Positions 27,939-59,084 of a DNA stretch of 64,000 nt are shown here, piece by piece. The notes beneath the pieces are model-generated. The model was not told the origin of the DNA and searched no databases. It worked only from the letters and a program-made list of their open reading frames with translations. Source of the DNA: a virus. The stretch spans positions 1 through 64,000 of the IMG/VR virus record IMGVR_UViG_3300045988_087149. One strand, given 5' to 3'. How positions within the stretch are numbered: the first letter of the stretch is position 1; the number at the start of each line of letters is the position of its first letter. The position numbers and the translations under genes are program-made.

Positions 27939-28029
27939 AAGGAATTAGTTTATAACAACGATTCAGTTGATAATAGAAAGATTTAAGTAGTATAAATGAT
28001 ACAGTGACATGGATTGTTAAAATATTTAC

Positions 28030-28058
28030 TTGACAAAGGATTAAAACCGTGATATAAT
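28030..28058 (+). promoter_or_regulatory. consensus sigma-70-type promoter for the HNH-AP2 gene
   Basis: TTGACA (28030-28035), 17-nt spacer, TGa-TATAAT (28053-28058). Confidence 0.75.
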
Positions 28059-28166
28059 ATTAAAAGAGGTTAAAGGTGGTTGCAAACATCTTTATTTGGG
28101 GGATAGTAACCTATTCTTGCTATCTCCACTCTATATTATTAAAAATCTTAGAATAGGAGAGATTTT
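28059..28166 (+). promoter_or_regulatory. structured 5' leader conserved with the leader of the HNH gene at 52174-52266 (- strand)
   Basis: Hairpin GGGGATAG (28099-28106) / CTATCTCC (28120-27). Its loop CCTATTCT (28110-28117) is complementary to AGAATAGG (28150-28157), which overlaps the SD AGGAGA. Both pairings recur with compensatory changes in the second copy. Confidence 0.55.
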
Positions 28167-28874
28167 ATGGGTAATTTTATTGATTTAACTGGGAAAACGT
28201 TTGGACGGCTGACTGTAATTAAAAGAGTTGAAAATAGAGGTAAAAGATTATACTGGCTATGCGAATGTTCTTGCGGGAATGAAAAAATTGTATGTGGCAC
28301 AGATTTGCGCGGCGGAGTAACAAAATCATGTGGTTGTCTACAAACAGAAGCAAGATACCTTAAAAGAAAAGGCAATAGATATAATCTTGATGGTGAATAT
28401 GGCGTTGGTTATGATTGCAATGACAAAGAGTTTTATTTTGACTTAGAAGACTATGATAAAATAAAAGGATATACATGGCACATTAACAATTATGGCTATC
28501 CTAGAGCATTAGTAAATGGCGTATCAGTTGGGTTACATTCGTTTCTTATACCACATGAAGGAAAAACTTGGATAGACCATATAGATGGAAATAGAGCTGA
28601 TTGCAGAAAGAAAAATTTGCGAGTGGCAACATATGCCCAAAACGGAATGAACAAGGCGTATATGAGTACAAACACCTCTGGAATTATTGGGGTTCATTTT
28701 GATAAAAGGGTTAACTTTTGGTATGCTCAAATATCAATCAACAATAAGACGGTATATGTGGGGTGTTCAAAAAATAAAGACGAAGCGATTCGATATAGAC
28801 TCTTAGCCGAAAAGCAATATTATAAAGATTTTGCGCCTCAACGGCATTTATTTGAAAAATACAATATTATCTAA
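28167..28874 (+). CDS. free-standing HNH homing endonuclease with AP2 DNA-binding domain
   Basis: WIDHIDGNRADCRKKNLRVATYAQNGMN (HNH) and SGIIGVHFDKRVNFWYAQISINNKTVYVGCSKNKDEAIRYR (AP2-like). It has its own promoter and terminator. Confidence 0.8.
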   Translation: MGNFIDLTGKTFGRLTVIKRVENRGKRLYWLCECSCGNEKIVCGTDLRGGVTKSCGCLQTEARYLKRKGNRYNLDGEYGVGYDCNDKEFYFDLEDYDKIKGYTWHINNYGYPRALVNGVSVGLHSFLIPHEGKTWIDHIDGNRADCRKKNLRVATYAQNGMNKAYMSTNTSGIIGVHFDKRVNFWYAQISINNKTVYVGCSKNKDEAIRYRLLAEKQYYKDFAPQRHLFEKYNII

Positions 28875-28876
28875 TT

Positions 28877-28912
28877 TTATTCACCGGTAAATACCGGTGA
28901 ATAAAATTTTTT
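28877..28912 (+). terminator. rho-independent terminator after the HNH-AP2 gene
   Basis: TTATTCACCGGT / ACCGGTGAATAA perfect stem followed by a T run. Confidence 0.7.
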
Positions 28913-28931
28913 ACTACATGGAGGGATTTTT

Positions 28932-29465
28932 ATGAACAATTTTTGTGGCGGCATAAGACTAGATTCAACCACACTCAAGATTATTAACGGGGTGATTTGT
29001 GATGCAAATGCAACAACTGTTGATAGAAGTAAGGCAGTATCTACTTGCGGTCAGCTCTGGGATGGCGCATTATTTACCGTGGTTAAAGTTGGCGGCGCTG
29101 GTTATATCACTTTACATGGTTCGGAAGGCGAAGAAATTGGTGCGCCTGTTATGGGTCGTGGTAATTGTGGTGTTGGTCTTGATGGGCGCTTTTTCAAGGT
29201 AGTAAAGGGCGCTGTTACTCTACAAGAGGGATTCTTACTTACTGTTGATGTAACGCCAAAGGAAGCTATCATCACTGTGACTGATGTTGATGGCGAGACG
29301 ATTGACCCAGTGAGTGGCAATGCAAAGCAGTTCCTACTAAGCGGCATTGGCGATACATATACTGTCACAGCTACTAAGACAGGATATACTACTGAGGCTA
29401 AACAGGTCAAGAATACAGGCGACCAGACGTTTACTATTGTAATGCAAGCATCTGCTGGCGGCTAA
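28932..29465 (+). CDS. hypothetical protein with a C-terminal PEGA/CarboxypepD_reg-like beta domain
   Basis: 177 aa with GGAGGGA SD. The C-terminus ...LTVDVTPKEAIITVTDVDGETI...YTVTATKTGYTTEAKQV resembles PEGA-type domains. Confidence 0.45.
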   Translation: MNNFCGGIRLDSTTLKIINGVICDANATTVDRSKAVSTCGQLWDGALFTVVKVGGAGYITLHGSEGEEIGAPVMGRGNCGVGLDGRFFKVVKGAVTLQEGFLLTVDVTPKEAIITVTDVDGETIDPVSGNAKQFLLSGIGDTYTVTATKTGYTTEAKQVKNTGDQTFTIVMQASAGG

Positions 29466-42699: not shown

Positions 42700-43097
42700 T
42701 CTTTCTCTCCTCCAATCTTAAATGGCCTGCCTTTCTTAGCTCTAAGATAACCAGAGCGATATGCTAGAGCAATGGCTTTAATTACCTCGTTCTCTCGATA
42801 ACATCTTACTTTCTCCATACCATCAAATCCCATAATAACGGGCAAATTGAATTTGATACAACCATTAAATACAGAATTATCCAGTTTTGGTTTGAGCATG
42901 GTATAGATTTCATCATCTGAAACATCTGGAAGTTCTTGATATAACGCCAAGCTAACAAGACTAACGACAAAACCACTATCATAATTTGGTGGAATTTTAA
43001 CAAAAGCGCTATTATGTCCGATTGATGCAATACACCCAAAATATACATTTGGCGTATCAACAGGTGCTACTTTATCTCCTACTTTGAATTTACTCAT
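42696..43097 (-). CDS. hypothetical protein
   Basis: 133 aa; AAGGAGG SD; first gene after promoter 43131-43159. Confidence 0.45.
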   Translation of the reverse strand: MSKFKVGDKVAPVDTPNVYFGCIASIGHNSAFVKIPPNYDSGFVVSLVSLALYQELPDVSDDEIYTMLKPKLDNSVFNGCIKFNLPVIMGFDGMEKVRCYRENEVIKAIALAYRSGYLRAKKGRPFKIGGEKE

Positions 43098-43130
43098 AAT
43101 AAAATCAACCTCCTTATTGTTGATATAGCA

Positions 43131-43159
43131 ATTATATCATAAAGAGGTTGATTTGTCAA
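43131..43159 (-). promoter_or_regulatory. consensus sigma-70-type promoter
   Basis: - strand TTGACA (43159-43154), 17 nt, TGa-TATAAT (43136-43131). Confidence 0.75.
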
Positions 43160-43168
43160 GTATTAAAT

Positions 43169-51594: not shown

Positions 51595-52173
51595 TCACTT
51601 TAATGTTTTTGTGTTAAATGCTTTTTCTATAGGCCATTTATATGCCTTTATTCTAGCTCTTAAAGTTGTATATTTTATACCTAATTCAGTTGCCCAATCA
51701 GATAATATTTGAGATTTCCCATTGTATTCATATAATTCTTCTTCATTATATGTGATAGCTTTTGCAACATCCCAACCATATTTATTTATACGTGCCCAAG
51801 ATGTTGCTGAAGGAACTCCATAAATTTCTTCCCACTCTTTTAATGTTTTTTCTTCGCCATTATATTTATATCTTACGTTATTTCGTCTATTTCTACATTG
51901 TTCAGTCAATGTTATCCACCTACAATTAGCTGGGCAATATCCTCCATTCGTATCAATTCTATCTAATGTCAAATCATCATTATATCCAGCACTGATTGCC
52001 CAATTATAGAAATTTTCGAATGAATCCTTCCATTCCTCACACATTGTTATACCACGTTTGCCATAATATTTATAATTATCATTGCCAACGTAATAACATC
52101 TTGTCTTAACATCACTCCAAATTCGATATATTCTCGTATTTGACATATTATGAGTTTTGTGCATCTTTATCAA
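51595..52173 (-). CDS. free-standing HNH-type homing endonuclease with two C-terminal HTH-like repeats
   Basis: TRIYRIWSDVKTRC...YGKRGITMCEEW...LTLDRIDTNGGYCPANCRWITLTEQCRNR, and a repeated ..L.EW....G....T...RI.KYGW...KA.. Confidence 0.7.
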   Translation of the reverse strand: MIKMHKTHNMSNTRIYRIWSDVKTRCYYVGNDNYKYYGKRGITMCEEWKDSFENFYNWAISAGYNDDLTLDRIDTNGGYCPANCRWITLTEQCRNRRNNVRYKYNGEEKTLKEWEEIYGVPSATSWARINKYGWDVAKAITYNEEELYEYNGKSQILSDWATELGIKYTTLRARIKAYKWPIEKAFNTKTLK

Positions 52174-52266
52174 TCTCCCTATATAAGATTTATTTAGAGT
52201 AGAGGGTTGATATAGGCAACCCCCTCAAACTAAGCCAGTTTGCAACCCAGCTTTGACCTCTATTAT
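52174..52266 (-). promoter_or_regulatory. structured 5' leader homologous to 28059-28166
   Basis: - strand hairpin GGGGGTTG / CAACCCTC (plus-strand coordinates 52202-52224), with loop CCTATAT complementary to ATATAGG just upstream of the SD GGGAGA. It shares the blocks AGAGGT.AAAG, TGG(G)TTGCAAAC, ACTCTA and ATCTTA.A.TAGG.GAGATT with the 28-kb copy. Confidence 0.55.
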
Positions 52267-52295
52267 ATTATATCACATTACCATATATTTGTCAA
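52267..52295 (-). promoter_or_regulatory. consensus sigma-70-type promoter for the HNH gene
   Basis: - strand TTGACA (52295-52290), 17 nt, TGa-TATAAT (52272-52267). Confidence 0.75.
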
Positions 52296-53294: not shown

Positions 53295-53507
53295 TTACAC
53301 CTCCTTGGGATTACCAAATATTCCACAACAAAAATCTTCATAATCTTTTACAACAGCATCCGCCACATCATTCCAAAATTTGATAAGATATTCAGATGAT
53401 TCATTTGGGAAATACAATAGCAGCGTATTTACAACATTATTCCCAGCTGTGAGCCTACCTTGAATCCCATCGAGCAATTTTTCTCGTTTTACTCCAACTT
53501 CTTCCAT
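53295..53507 (-). CDS. hypothetical protein
   Basis: Track ORF 53295-53546; the ATG at 53507 (MEEVGVK...) has an AGGAGA SD and overlaps the dnaE end by 19 nt. Confidence 0.4.
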   Translation of the reverse strand: MEEVGVKREKLLDGIQGRLTAGNNVVNTLLLYFPNESSEYLIKFWNDVADAVVKDYEDFCCGIFGNPKEV

Positions 53508-56500
53508 ACTTTCATCTCCTGATACGTTTCTGATAATGTTACCCATTCACCATTTTCATCCTTCTTCATTTTATTTTTTTCTTGCAATACCACCCTTGCT
53601 ACATCACCTTTTGATAATTGATGATTCGTCCAGAATTTCTTATTGACTCTATATGTGCGTTCTGCGCCATAACATAGGTTATATAGTGTACAATAAACCG
53701 TACCATATCCTGTTGTCTTTACATCTAGCACTAGCCAATCATTAGGGTCTGAATTTGGGTCATTTACCGTACAATATCCTAGATACTCAAGCTGCCATTT
53801 AATGCGATCAACAATAGTAGCTGGCTTAATATTAGCTTGCTTAATTAAAGCCGTTATCAATGCTTTATTGTCAATCTCTCTAAATTGCTTCTCGGTTTCT
53901 TTACCACAACACGGCCTAATTGCATCTATCATTATATCATCAAATGATGATTTTGTCAATACCTTTGCTGAAATATATTTTTGATAAATCTCATATTCAG
54001 TAATGAGCCGATTTGGTTGAGCAAATTTATCAAAATATCCAAGGCAAAATAGGATTTCAATGGCTTTCTTGTTGATTCTAGGGTCGTCCATAAGTGCTTG
54101 GTATAGAGCAGCGCGATTCTTTATATCAGACTTTCCAAGCTCATATAGTGCCTCTGGTGCGCTCTTAGGCATATCCTTGATAGATGCCATAGTCTGTACA
54201 ATACAGTTGTTAGCACGGTCTATATTGAACGCTCTGTTGTCATCTCCAAATTGAATATCCTTGAGCTTATAGCCGCGCTTTAACATTTCCTGCTTAATGA
54301 GCGCAACCTTATCTTTTTCGCCCTTATCGGTAAATCGCTGGAGTACGCACTTATAAAATTCAAGTGGATAATGCGCCTTGAGATAAGCAATCGTTACACT
54401 ATCAATAGCCATACAATAAGCATGGGCTGAATTGAAGCCATATGCGGCGCTATTCTCAATGATTGTCCATACCTTATCAGCAAGCTCATGTGCCTTGTTA
54501 TCATCATCCGTCTCGCCCGTATCAAGAATAGCTTGAGCAAAATTCTTGATAAATTTAGGCTTTGCGTCTTTGATGATATAATCCTTTTTCTTGCTGATTG
54601 CCTTGATAATAGTATATGTTTCAGACATAGGGAAGCCAGCAAAGCCAAGGACTTTCATTAGAGATTCCTGATATAGAATGAATGACGATGAACAGTATTC
54701 GTCTTGAAGCAAGTCATCAAGCGCCTTGATGCCATAATCAAAATGCTGCCGTTGCTCAAATGTCTGATACATAGATTGGAAAGACGGCCTGATTGCAGCT
54801 ATGAACTGGGTCAACTCAGCAATATTCTTTGGCTTATATCGCATTACTTTTTGAGTTGACTTTGGCTGTTCACACTGATTGACGCATTGTGTATAACCAT
54901 CGGCGTAAATCTGCCATGTTGCATCATCATGTGCAATTTTTTCAAGAAGCTGGTTGACAGTGAACGGCTCGATTCCAGCCTCTTTATAAATATCATATGT
55001 CAAGCCGATTGAATCAACAATAAGATAATCTTGCTTGAGATAGCCAAAAGCATCAATCGTGCCTGATTCGATATTAGCTACAAGCACCTCTTTACCGGTT
55101 GCTTCGGATTTGCACAGGCTGATGCCAATATCAGATTCAATGTCTCCCTCATAGCATAAGCATCCACAGGGATGACCCTTTGCAGTATCATAAATGCCTA
55201 GATATTTCTTACATCCATCTACAAGCTCTTGATATTTCGGCTCGATATATTTATGAATATCAACCGTTTCACCATCTTCAGCGTGTTTCTTGGCTGTTTC
55301 ATAGCGGTCAATCTGCTTACTTACTTCATTGGCTGTATCAGGCTTGACATTATATGCTCTTGCATACATCTTCCATGCGGCCTTGAATTTAAGTGTACCA
55401 AGAGCCAATAGGTCATATGTACCAAGTTCGCCTACTAGGTCGCGCTGTGCTTGAATGAATGGCTGACGGTCACTGACGTTGTTATCAATATCAGGCGGCG
55501 TATGGCTATCTAAGACGCGCTCTTTAGTCAAAAATCGTTCTGAATACATAAGGACGGTGCTATTGACCTTATCAACCTTAGTAAGCCTCAAGAGCTTATT
55601 GAGATACATAGAGACAGCAGAGCCACGCCCTGATGGGGTCAAGATACCGCCATATTTCTCTTGTCCGCGCTTCATTACCATATATGACAAGATGAAATAA
55701 TCCGCCATATTACAAGCCTCTATCTCACCTATATCATGCTTGATCTCTTGATAATACTGTTGCAGTTTATCCTTGTTAATATCGGCTTTTTGCAAGAACC
55801 ATTCATCTTTAAGAATCTGCTCAAAGATATGATTACGTTCTTCTTGTGTCTTATTACGCAGCTCTTTTATAACAGGCACTTTCAATGAGCGGTCGAGCTT
55901 TATGTCCTCAAATTCAAACAGCACATTGGTATTATTGATAGCGGCTTTAATCTGACTGTCTGTCAATACGCCTTGTTGCTTAAATCGCTCAAATAGCACA
56001 TCATATGTTGGATAGTCCATATACCATCCATCTTCATCTTCATAATGGATATTACCTGATTTGAGCAATTCATCTCTATCAAGCATTTGTGATTCAGTGA
56101 TAACATGACTATCACAACCGGCAATGATCGGTATGCCATAAAATTTAGGTAATAGCAAATGCTCATTTAATTGTTTCTGCGCTAATGTATCATGAGCTTG
56201 CACTTCAAGATAGAAGTGCGGGAACTTATGTGCCAACTGAATAACAATATCGTCTATGTCATCGTATTTATTCCAGAAGGCGATGCAAGCCGTTGTAATC
56301 ATCACATCATCTATTGGCAACTGGTCAATCAATTCAAGGTCGATACGAGGACGCGCATAATATCCATCCTTGTTTGCAATAGATAGAATTTTATTGATTG
56401 CTTTACGTCCTTTATCAGTTCGCGCTAATAACACAATATGACAGTTGCTTCTATCAGATTCATGTCGGTCTTTTACCCAGTATGCTTCAGCGCCATATAT

Positions 56501-56731
56501 CCATCTAATATTTGTGCCGTTCTTCTTATTAAATTTTTCTAGGTCATCATATTGTTTGAAATAATTACCAGCCCATCCATGCTCTACTGTAGTATAGATA
56601 CACGGTTTATCACCATATCGTGCTTTTAGCTCATTCCAATAATCTATTGGCAAAAGCGGGCTGTCTTTTAACCATTTATTACTTAGAGATGTATGCTTAT
56701 GGTAATTTACCCAAATTGGTTCATTCATCAC
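53489..56731 (-). CDS. dnaE: DNA polymerase III alpha subunit (DnaE-type, with N-terminal PHP domain)
   Basis: 1080 aa. PHP-like N-terminus (VNYHKHTSLS), polymerase core GRGSAVSMYLNKLLRLTKVD, and FNSAHAYCMA in the fingers region. Confidence 0.8.
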   Translation of the reverse strand: MMNEPIWVNYHKHTSLSNKWLKDSPLLPIDYWNELKARYGDKPCIYTTVEHGWAGNYFKQYDDLEKFNKKNGTNIRWIYGAEAYWVKDRHESDRSNCHIVLLARTDKGRKAINKILSIANKDGYYARPRIDLELIDQLPIDDVMITTACIAFWNKYDDIDDIVIQLAHKFPHFYLEVQAHDTLAQKQLNEHLLLPKFYGIPIIAGCDSHVITESQMLDRDELLKSGNIHYEDEDGWYMDYPTYDVLFERFKQQGVLTDSQIKAAINNTNVLFEFEDIKLDRSLKVPVIKELRNKTQEERNHIFEQILKDEWFLQKADINKDKLQQYYQEIKHDIGEIEACNMADYFILSYMVMKRGQEKYGGILTPSGRGSAVSMYLNKLLRLTKVDKVNSTVLMYSERFLTKERVLDSHTPPDIDNNVSDRQPFIQAQRDLVGELGTYDLLALGTLKFKAAWKMYARAYNVKPDTANEVSKQIDRYETAKKHAEDGETVDIHKYIEPKYQELVDGCKKYLGIYDTAKGHPCGCLCYEGDIESDIGISLCKSEATGKEVLVANIESGTIDAFGYLKQDYLIVDSIGLTYDIYKEAGIEPFTVNQLLEKIAHDDATWQIYADGYTQCVNQCEQPKSTQKVMRYKPKNIAELTQFIAAIRPSFQSMYQTFEQRQHFDYGIKALDDLLQDEYCSSSFILYQESLMKVLGFAGFPMSETYTIIKAISKKKDYIIKDAKPKFIKNFAQAILDTGETDDDNKAHELADKVWTIIENSAAYGFNSAHAYCMAIDSVTIAYLKAHYPLEFYKCVLQRFTDKGEKDKVALIKQEMLKRGYKLKDIQFGDDNRAFNIDRANNCIVQTMASIKDMPKSAPEALYELGKSDIKNRAALYQALMDDPRINKKAIEILFCLGYFDKFAQPNRLITEYEIYQKYISAKVLTKSSFDDIMIDAIRPCCGKETEKQFREIDNKALITALIKQANIKPATIVDRIKWQLEYLGYCTVNDPNSDPNDWLVLDVKTTGYGTVYCTLYNLCYGAERTYRVNKKFWTNHQLSKGDVARVVLQEKNKMKKDENGEWVTLSETYQEMKVWKKLE
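53931..53959 (-). promoter_or_regulatory. perfect consensus promoter sequence internal to dnaE
   Basis: - strand TTGACA (53959-53954), 17 nt, TGa-TATAAT (53936-53931), about 440 nt before the dnaE stop. Function unproven. Confidence 0.5.
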
Positions 56732-58728: not shown

Positions 58729-59013
58729 TTACTCTCTATAATCATCATAAATTTCAAGCACACAATGCTTCTCGTCTCTCCACTTTCTTGGTGGAGCAAT
58801 TATAACTTCATGTCCAGTTTCATCAATCAATTCTTTTAGTTTAGCCATAGATGAAATATCAATATATGTAATATCCCATTCGCTATTATTGATCTTATTC
58901 CGTACTCGGGTCATATACATCTTATACTTTTCATCCCCAAGACAAGGATACTTTGTAATTGCCCCAGCATAAGATGGATAACCAATCGATGTGATGTTTA
59001 AACAAAATTTCAT
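58729..59013 (-). CDS. hypothetical early protein (IEIYDxYRE family), paralogue of 38211-38459
   Basis: Start moved to the ATG at 59013 (MKFCLNIT...), because the ATG at 59034 lies about 5 nt from the predicted TSS. Ends ...HEVIIAPP....LEIYDDYRE. Confidence 0.45.
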   Translation of the reverse strand: MKFCLNITSIGYPSYAGAITKYPCLGDEKYKMYMTRVRNKINNSEWDITYIDISSMAKLKELIDETGHEVIIAPPRKWRDEKHCVLEIYDDYRE

Positions 59014-59045
59014 AACAACAACCGCCCCTTTCATTTGATACTTGG

Positions 59046-59074
59046 ATTATATCATAGATTGGAGCGGTTGTCAA
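59046..59074 (-). promoter_or_regulatory. consensus sigma-70-type promoter
   Basis: - strand TTGACA (59074-59069), 17 nt, TGa-TATAAT (59051-59046). Confidence 0.75.
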
Positions 59075-59084
59075 GATGGTTTAT

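Follow-up and report, generated by a model that had tools for sequence, protein, structure and literature searches.

Why do two unrelated genes in one virus share the sequence in front of them? In the 64,000 nt of IMG/VR record IMGVR_UViG_3300045988_087149 that we analyzed (the window; coordinates given without a contig name are window positions), 28030-28166 on the plus strand and 52295-52165 on the minus strand are homologous over ~150 nt at ~70% identity (blastn within the window, E = 5e-13 and 2e-11), and each lies upstream of an HNH homing endonuclease gene. In both copies the shared leader is about 100 nt long and sits between a promoter and the Shine-Dalgarno sequence (SD) and ATG of the HNH gene. 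A sequence-only reading of this locus had proposed a conserved promoter and a structured leader RNA, carried as a portable module that throttles endonuclease translation. We consider that both copies serve as control regions of autonomous mobile HNH homing endonuclease cassettes in which the leader occludes the SD, a reading to which we give a probability of roughly 0.7.

The homology of the two upstream regions is borne out by a covariance model which, run over all 64 kb with filters off, picks exactly these two copies (106.4 bits for copy 2 and 66.6 for copy 1; the next best score is 15.7). The common promoter is likewise as described, sigma-70 in type and reading TTGACA-17-TGnTATAAT with 12/12 consensus matches at each copy, and the extended -10 architecture of copy 1 recurs in every homologue. 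Six other consensus promoters in the window have the promoter in common only, and their leaders are short and unrelated (blastn, promoter scan). A 12/12 consensus promoter, TTGACA-17-TGATATAAT, lies at 53931-53959 on the minus strand, inside the Pol III alpha open reading frame (ORF) at 53489-56731. The two endonucleases appear unrelated, as had been claimed: no similarity between them is detectable by BLASTP (best E 0.66), yet both match HNH endonuclease PHROGs. Two details about the genes need qualifying. The AP2 domain assigned to the product of the gene at 28167 was unconfirmed by Pfam at E <= 0.01, which reported HNH_3 alone, and the start of the second gene is most likely ATG 52164 rather than TTG 52173, since the homologues share MHKTHNMS and the spacing from the SD fits. 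The promoters, genes and cassette boundaries are as follows.

27946-28937, plus strand: inserted cassette of copy 1, comprising upstream spacer, promoter, leader, HNH gene and terminator
28030-28058, plus strand: promoter of copy 1, with -35 TTGACA at 28030-28035, a 17-nt spacer, TG at 28050-28051 and TATAAT at 28053-28058 (12/12 with the TG)
28167-28874, plus strand: HNH homing endonuclease gene of copy 1, 235 amino acids (Pfam HNH_3, 2.7e-7; PHROG 374 and 99, "HNH endonuclease")
28873-28914, plus strand: intrinsic terminator of copy 1, a 16-bp stem and then a T run, which closes the cassette
52267-52295, minus strand: promoter of copy 2, with -35 at 52295-52290, TG at 52275-52274 and -10 at 52272-52267
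51595-52164, minus strand: HNH homing endonuclease gene of copy 2, 189 amino acids, with its ATG at 52164 (PHROG 3377, 1.8e-61)

The copy 2 promoter begins 10 nt past the stop codon of an AAA_24 gene. No terminator follows the copy 2 gene, whose stop codon overlaps the SD of the next gene.

Minimum-free-energy structures, RNAalifold on a MAFFT alignment made without reference to structure, and pair counts together point to a leader that folds as a three-way junction of helices P1, P2 and P3, then a small hairpin, P4, which contains the SD; with a kissing helix between the P3 and P4 loops this makes five helices, of which RNAalifold predicts P1 to P4. In P1 the 5'-terminal AGAG pairs with the CUCU of ACUCU. 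P2 has 7-8 bp and an 8-nt loop on top, and P3 has 9-11 G+C-rich bp and a 7-nt loop. The A+U-rich P4 has 5-8 bp; the 3' half of the SD (GGAGA) makes up its 3' strand, and the 5' half, with the four bases upstream, lies in its loop. The kiss is a 7-bp helix in which the whole P3 loop pairs with the P4 loop. The elements of the two copies lie at the following positions.

28065-28132, plus strand: three-way junction of copy 1 (minimum-free-energy fold, RNAalifold and pair counts)
28065-28068 with 28129-28132, plus strand: P1 of copy 1
28072-28078 with 28087-28093, plus strand: P2 of copy 1, with loop GUUGCAAA at 28079-28086
28094-28098, plus strand: J2/3 of copy 1
28099-28109 with 28117-28127, plus strand: P3 of copy 1, 11 bp, with loop CCUAUUC at 28110-28116
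28142-28149 with 28159-28166, plus strand: P4 of copy 1, with its loop at 28150-28158 (read from the sequence)
28151-28157, plus strand: GAAUAGG, which forms the 7-bp kiss of copy 1 with the P3 loop at 28110-28116
28155-28159, plus strand: SD of copy 1, AGGAG
52196-52261, minus strand: three-way junction of copy 2 (fold, covariance model and pair counts)
52261-52258 with 52199-52196, minus strand: P1 of copy 2
52253-52247 with 52238-52232, minus strand: P2 of copy 2, with loop GUUGCAAA at 52246-52239
52225-52217 with 52209-52201, minus strand: P3 of copy 2, with loop CCUAUAU at 52216-52210
52190-52185 with 52177-52172, minus strand: P4 of copy 2 (hairpin 52172-52190)
52184-52178, minus strand: P4 loop AUAUAGG of copy 2, which kisses the P3 loop
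52180-52175, minus strand: SD of copy 2, AGGGAG

The sequence-only reading had seen part of this structure. The hairpin that it described is P3, which is present and is kept by compensatory changes in many homologues, but in copy 1 it has 11 bp and a 7-nt loop rather than 8 bp, and its G-U wobble sits at the same position in both copies only if the copy 2 helix is read as 9 bp. The pairing of its loop with the SD region is likewise present and compensated in many homologues, though it comprises 7 bp in copy 1, not 8. A pseudoknot had been suggested; the P3 loop does pair with the SD region, but its partner sits in the loop of a second hairpin, so that the topology is an intramolecular loop-loop kiss and not a plain H-type pseudoknot. 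The motifs AGAGGT/ACTCTA and TGGTTGCAAAC...TTT had been listed correctly as conserved but were not recognized as the helices P1 and P2.

A covariance-model search of the kind that had been proposed yielded, in union with pattern scans, ~50 leader copies of ~21 sequence types in related phage contigs, and in our pair counts 30/33 pairs change on both sides across these types (P1 4/4, P2 8/8, P3 9/9, the kiss 6/7 and P4 3/5). Among 41 distinct sequences, standard pairs make up 95.7% of 1342 cells, versus 40-52% after displacing the 3' partners by 1-3 columns. None of 500 shuffles matched the observed values for four of five measures, and 2/500 did so for the fifth (further pair types). P4 is 94.6% paired across the homologues and the kissing helix 94.8-97.9%; since the kiss was left out of the covariance model, its pairing is an independent test. 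Its counts are slightly conservative, because model-based alignments shift copy 1 and contig L367 by one kiss column; the MAFFT alignment places copy 1 wrongly in P3 and P4. At least 10 distinct complementary kissing pairs occur (more than 10 by our summary count). Written as P3 loop/P4 loop, these include CCUAUUC/GAAUAGG in copy 1 and CCUAUAU/AUAUAGG in copy 2, and in the homologues CUCGUCU/AGACGAG, CUUACUC/GAGUAAG, CUUAUCU/AGAUAAG, CUUACAU/AUGUAAG, CUUACCU/AGGUAAG, CUUACAC/GUGUAAG, CUUGUCU/AGACAAG and CCAUUUC/GAAAUGG. Variants of P1 also compensate (GAGG/CCUC and AAGG/CCUU). About 78 of the cells in the pair counts are G-U, which on the opposite strand would be A-C mismatches, and the sense RNA is therefore the folding strand. 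These counts support a structured leader RNA folded as P1 to P4 plus the kiss.

The true homologues found by pattern scans lie in ~20 IMG/VR contigs of 45-100 kb and in 9 metagenome contigs, at least one of the homologue contigs being labeled human gut. The covariance models built from these homologues (R1 and R2) were run on the neighborhoods of three conserved proteins of the clade. Up to three copies occur within 10 kb, and a loose pattern, GGTTGCAAAC..ACTCTA, gave only chance matches beyond the true copies. Neither R1 nor R2 found a copy in more distant relatives (AAA_24 at <= 61% identity). Among GenBank phages there was no megablast match, no sequence there is more than 39% identical to the Pol III alpha, and a distant blastn search with either leader reaches promoters only. 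In GTDB, where 185,579 bacterial and archaeal species are each represented by a single genome, all 49 pattern matches were due to chance, with no prophage or chromosomal copy. The statement that this is not a known riboswitch or leader class agrees with Rfam 15, in which the window and 10 loci had no match at the gathering score and only chance-level hits at E <= 10 (rli28, for one, scores 17-19.5 bits where its gathering score is 45); our literature searches found no described motif of this kind. On these comparisons we take the leader to be a real family of cis-acting RNAs, specific to the mobile HNH cassettes of one uncultured phage clade whose hosts are probably Firmicutes, judging from the promoters and SDs. 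In four unrelated-looking large contigs (L379, L382, L385 and L388) we noted an identical stretch, TTGACA-17-TATAAT-ACTATC-AGAGGTTGAGGGAAGCACAACCACTACGGGCACTGAGG..., which does not belong to the leader family and could be another promoter-proximal RNA.

That the leader travels with its gene as a portable expression module is supported. At copy 1, the 992 nt at 27946-28937 correspond to 14 nt in L337 and L338, in which the tail gene is 97% and 86% identical, and two other assemblies (L346 and L347) have the cassette with a different left flank, homology beginning at about 28012. Eight relatives have nothing inserted at the copy 2 site behind the AAA_24 gene, and in a contig with a 100% identical AAA_24 protein that site holds a different leader type and a different endonuclease. 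One near-identical leader fronts at least five different endonuclease ORFs, and all of the downstream ORFs that we inspected encode an HNH-type endonuclease or a decayed one. For 15 alleles of the copy 2 subtype, mean pairwise identity is 97.8% in the leader, 65% in the promoter spacer, 60% in the upstream flank and 46% in the first 60 nt of the ORF, the last value being low because the ORFs come from different families (NUMOD4-HNH, HNH_3 with zinc ribbons, and PHROG 3377 types). These comparisons indicate that the mobile unit is promoter plus leader plus ORF and that ORFs are also swapped behind one leader. Presence/absence polymorphism, an own promoter and terminator, and decayed ORFs are the marks of a free-standing homing endonuclease cassette.

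Several loci have intact leaders before decaying genes, reduced to stubs of 48 or 97 amino acids, frameshifted after 5 codons or with ATG changed to ATT (L212:4585-4686 / L297:10675-10776, L178:1975-2076, L120:7329-7431 and L142:1099-1200), a pattern that fits the invasion-decay cycle of homing endonuclease genes. Tandem leader-endonuclease cassettes, with leader types and ORFs that differ, occupy one intergenic site in L287:10676-12135, L286:10676-12804 and L226:5766-7900. Just past the copy 1 cassette, the gene at 28932-29465 on the plus strand has a weak class II bacteriocin-like match at its N-terminus (Pfam E 2e-4, which misses the cut-off) and matches no PHROG. Because the empty sites use AAAGGAAT...ATG, the ribosome-binding site (RBS) of this gene was rebuilt by the insertion.

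What would such a leader do? In the proposed mechanism, the host sigma-A/sigma-70 RNA polymerase would start at the consensus extended -10 promoter, giving a transcript whose 5' end should lie within ~1 nt of AGAGG, so that P1 would also sequester that end. As the covariation shows, the first ~70 nt fold as the three-way junction, with P1 joining the 5' end to ACUCU, a palindromic P2 loop and the G+C-rich P3; the weak P4 follows, and all seven bases of the P3 loop pair with its loop. In this fold the SD is fully paired: the P4 stem takes up its 3' half and the kissing helix its 5' half. By itself P4 is marginal (-0.4 to -3.2 kcal/mol); a further -4 to -9 kcal/mol comes from the loop-loop duplex in every type but one, so SD occlusion depends on the loop-loop contact, which the three-way junction positions. 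With the SD inside a stack of P3, kiss and P4, binding of the 30S subunit would be limited, and an abundant, probably stable mRNA would yield little nuclease. Judging from this occlusion, the leader probably throttles translation of the endonucleases. Since the kissing sequences differ between copies, each would act in cis only. The P2 loop and the junction bases, which are common to all copies, would be the likely handle for a shared input, either RNA-RNA dimerization through the palindrome or a trans-acting factor.

Some observations weigh against this reading. The sequences all come from one phage clade, and some of the covariation events are common by descent. The start site, the repression and any release mechanism are steps that we infer, and among the variant types we found no conserved alternative "on" fold. 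With so weak a P4, occlusion may be leaky. Some HNH genes of the same clade have no leader, which is therefore not obligatory, and to couple a strong promoter to a leader that represses seems paradoxical, unless the RNA also does something else.

The P2 loop is almost always a 6-nt palindrome. In most types it reads G-UUGCAA-A, and the exceptions are G-UAGCUA-A (on two unrelated stems, in L296 and L384), G-UGCGCA-C, G-UGUACA-A and, in one type, A-GCGC-A. These amount to four different 6-nt palindromes plus a GCGC core; with the frame U....A fixed, the chance probability of each further palindrome is 1/16. Leaders might pair loop-to-loop through the palindrome, as at the HIV-1 dimerization initiation site (DIS), and regulation or processing would then act on the dimer rather than the monomer, for instance as dose-dependent repression or cleavage by RNase III. 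We hold this tentatively, at odds below even. The range of palindromes, including UAGCUA on two independent stems, speaks for it, as does a scan that ignored the P2 loop and recovered no family member with a non-palindromic one, but the loop of L367, the most divergent member, is not clearly palindromic, and a palindromic tip can also fold on itself into extra pairs and a tetraloop. The dimer is putative, and so is any consequence for translation. A second, sequence-unrelated leader (L290:13990-14092 and L377:2365-2464), undetected by R1 and R2, precedes two different HNH ORFs and is predicted to form P1/P2/P3 and P4 with a 12-bp P1 (single-sequence fold, z -1.87), a P3 loop, AACUCC, complementary to its SD, GGAGUU, and a P2 tip, CUUGCAAG, with the same UUGCAA loop; this prediction comes from two near-identical copies, with no covariation behind it. 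The same UUGCAA loop in an unrelated leader also suits a reading in which the three-way junction is a sensor, either a riboswitch aptamer or a site for a phage or host protein; binding there would form or disrupt the contact between the P3 and P4 loops, so that every endonuclease cassette came on at one particular stage or state of the infection. Also in its favor are invariant unpaired bases, which cluster in the P2 loop and at the junction (GG following P1, the U run in J2/3, the A of J3/1), next to kissing bases that vary freely. We consider it unlikely, since we found no alternative pairing that is conserved, Rfam has no match, and a loop that switches among four palindromes is hard to fit to one ligand pocket or one protein. 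The alternative pairings that we tried did not hold up: CAAA/UUUG and GAGGUU/AAUCUU fail in variant types, a CAAAC/GUUUG hairpin of the P2 loop with J2/3 is sterically implausible and is lost when the loop changes, and an "on" pairing of the 5' GAGGUU with the 5' strand of P4 is not conserved in the AUUCUU class. Either dimerization or recognition by a common factor would be a serious extra layer on top of SD occlusion, one that we put forward tentatively. Combined with the kiss it would give a two-level riboregulator, a possible but doubtful scheme in which a private kiss locks each mRNA and a public P2 palindrome lets leaders dimerize or bind one factor. If this were true, a phage's selfish nuclease cassettes would all be counted, or released, as one group, and a bacteriophage mRNA would contain a DIS-like RNA dimerization device, reinvented or retained in at least two sequence-unrelated leaders.

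The remaining explanations fare worse. A simple scan marks 28099-28127 as terminator-like, and P3, with 9-11 G+C-rich bp, could be read as an intrinsic terminator or attenuator exerting transcriptional control. This is highly improbable, as no U tract follows P3 and the tail belongs to P1: in nearly all types it reads ACUCUWAA, with 2-3 U in most, the ACUCU pairs with the 5' end and covaries with it (GAGG/CCUC, AAGG/CCUU), and the P3 loop covaries with the SD region. Our comparisons gave no support to the terminator, tRNA-like or ribozyme classes. Equally improbable is a 6-codon leader peptide that would start at a UUG or GUG of the P2 loop, 9-10 nt past the SD-like AGAGGU, and stop in J2/3, and whose translation would open the fold and couple it to the endonuclease gene. 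An in-frame UAA, UGA or UAG does occur in J2/3 of about 10/15 of the types then in hand, and GUGCGCAC variants retain the start codon and the reading frame, but loops reading UAGCUA or AGCGCA offer no start codon, five types lack a stop at J2/3, the YUURR consensus gives a stop codon by chance in three of four sequences, and P2 covaries at all codon positions. The reading fails because start and stop codons are not conserved. Least probable of all is that the similarity reflects a recent duplication of promoter and untranslated region, or a DNA-level site (an operator or a recombination site), with no function as RNA. The promoter is indeed common to many genes, and the P2 palindrome could in principle be a site in DNA, but the covariation counts contradict this explanation, with compensatory changes in five helices and strand-specific G-U pairs; in addition the leader is 98% identical where the promoter spacer is 65%, and the stems differ between copies within one genome. 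SD occlusion by the P1 to P4 fold, on a mobile cassette, remains our preferred reading.

Other possible signs of mobile elements were noted in the window and its relatives. At 4354-5690 on the plus strand, a 313-nt non-coding stretch is followed by an ORF of 276 amino acids (4667-5497; PHROG "homing endonuclease", Pfam DUF7487 and DUF559/Vsr-like), and 5366-5534 has a sub-threshold Rfam group I intron match (19.9 bits, E 0.024). A structural gene (3694-4353 / 5696-6019) is probably interrupted here by a group I intron with an endonuclease; the covariance model scan of the window found no HNH leader there. The homologues of the exonuclease V/Dda-like helicase at 35800-37953 in L371 and L373-L377 match over a span of ~3150 nt, versus 2151 nt in the window, and these six relatives therefore have an insertion of ~1 kb in the helicase gene, perhaps an intron, an intein or a nested endonuclease.

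As selfish genes, homing endonucleases need to be expressed without harm to their carrier, and, to our knowledge, little is known outside T4-like phages about what restrains them. In phages of gut bacteria of Gram-positive type, a compact RNA family with good covariation support appears to be dedicated to this restraint. The cassette would be a self-contained expression unit, made up of a consensus promoter, a 100-nt attenuator and an exchangeable ORF, and may serve as a part; its kissing sequences look programmable, with >10 natural variants, and the palindromic P2 loop raises the possibility of mRNA dimerization in a phage.

The closest precedent is in the T-even phages, where the homing endonuclease genes I-TevI, I-TevII, I-TevIII, segB and mobE have RBS-sequestering hairpins, and in T4 a late promoter inside the hairpin bypasses the occlusion (PMC2988022). 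In both settings the SD of a phage homing endonuclease gene is buried in RNA structure, which restricts translation in the T-even phages and probably does so here. The T-even structures are single stable hairpins that form no sequence family, whereas ours is a conserved family with a four-helix fold and a loop-loop contact. Their late promoter lies inside the hairpin; here the only consensus promoter is upstream of the whole fold (a -10-like TATAAT occurs between P1 and P4 in some types only), the structure is wholly downstream of it, and every transcript would carry the leader fold. Elsewhere in the window, the early promoters at 43159 and 59074 lie inside strong hairpins (43085-43165, minus strand, -24.3 kcal/mol, z -6.75; 58995-59080, minus strand, -26.5 kcal/mol, z -4.95), and in both the -35/spacer segment is complementary to the SD of the downstream gene. 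Read-through transcripts would hide the SD there and the promoter's own transcripts would not, a T4-like bypass logic. RBS occlusion of homing endonuclease genes may thus be a general rule across unrelated phages, arrived at through different folds.

The individual parts of the leader have counterparts in other systems. ColE1 RNA I/RNA II and HIV-1 TAR-TAR* are kissing complexes that act in trans, as antisense or designed pairs; as in our leader, two hairpins pair through all 6-7 loop bases with coaxial stacking, but here the kiss is intramolecular and occludes the SD. The HIV-1 DIS has the 6-nt palindromes GCGCGC or GUGCAC, purine-flanked, in a 9-nt loop. The P2 loop resembles it in having a 6-nt palindrome between two flanking bases and several palindromes per family, and differs in belonging to a phage mRNA leader rather than a packaged genome, with dimerization as a candidate property. 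In the IncI-alpha/IncB repZ/repA leaders, a pseudoknot activates translation, leaves the SD free and needs leader-peptide translation. Long-range pairing of a hairpin loop with the RBS region would set translation in both systems, but in our leader the SD itself is paired and no leader peptide is conserved. The guanidine-II (mini-ykkC) riboswitch also places two loop-kissing hairpins by the SD; its ACGR ligand loops are invariant, whereas the loops here covary freely and have no Rfam match. HEARO, the IscB omega RNA, is a ~300-nt guide RNA for IscB and, like our leader, a structured RNA directly upstream of an HNH nuclease gene; here the genes encode small phage homing endonucleases, and no Rfam family matched at either threshold. 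The strategy, RBS occlusion of homing endonuclease genes, is a known one; the architecture, with its three-way junction, intramolecular 7-bp kiss and palindromic loop, is unusual.
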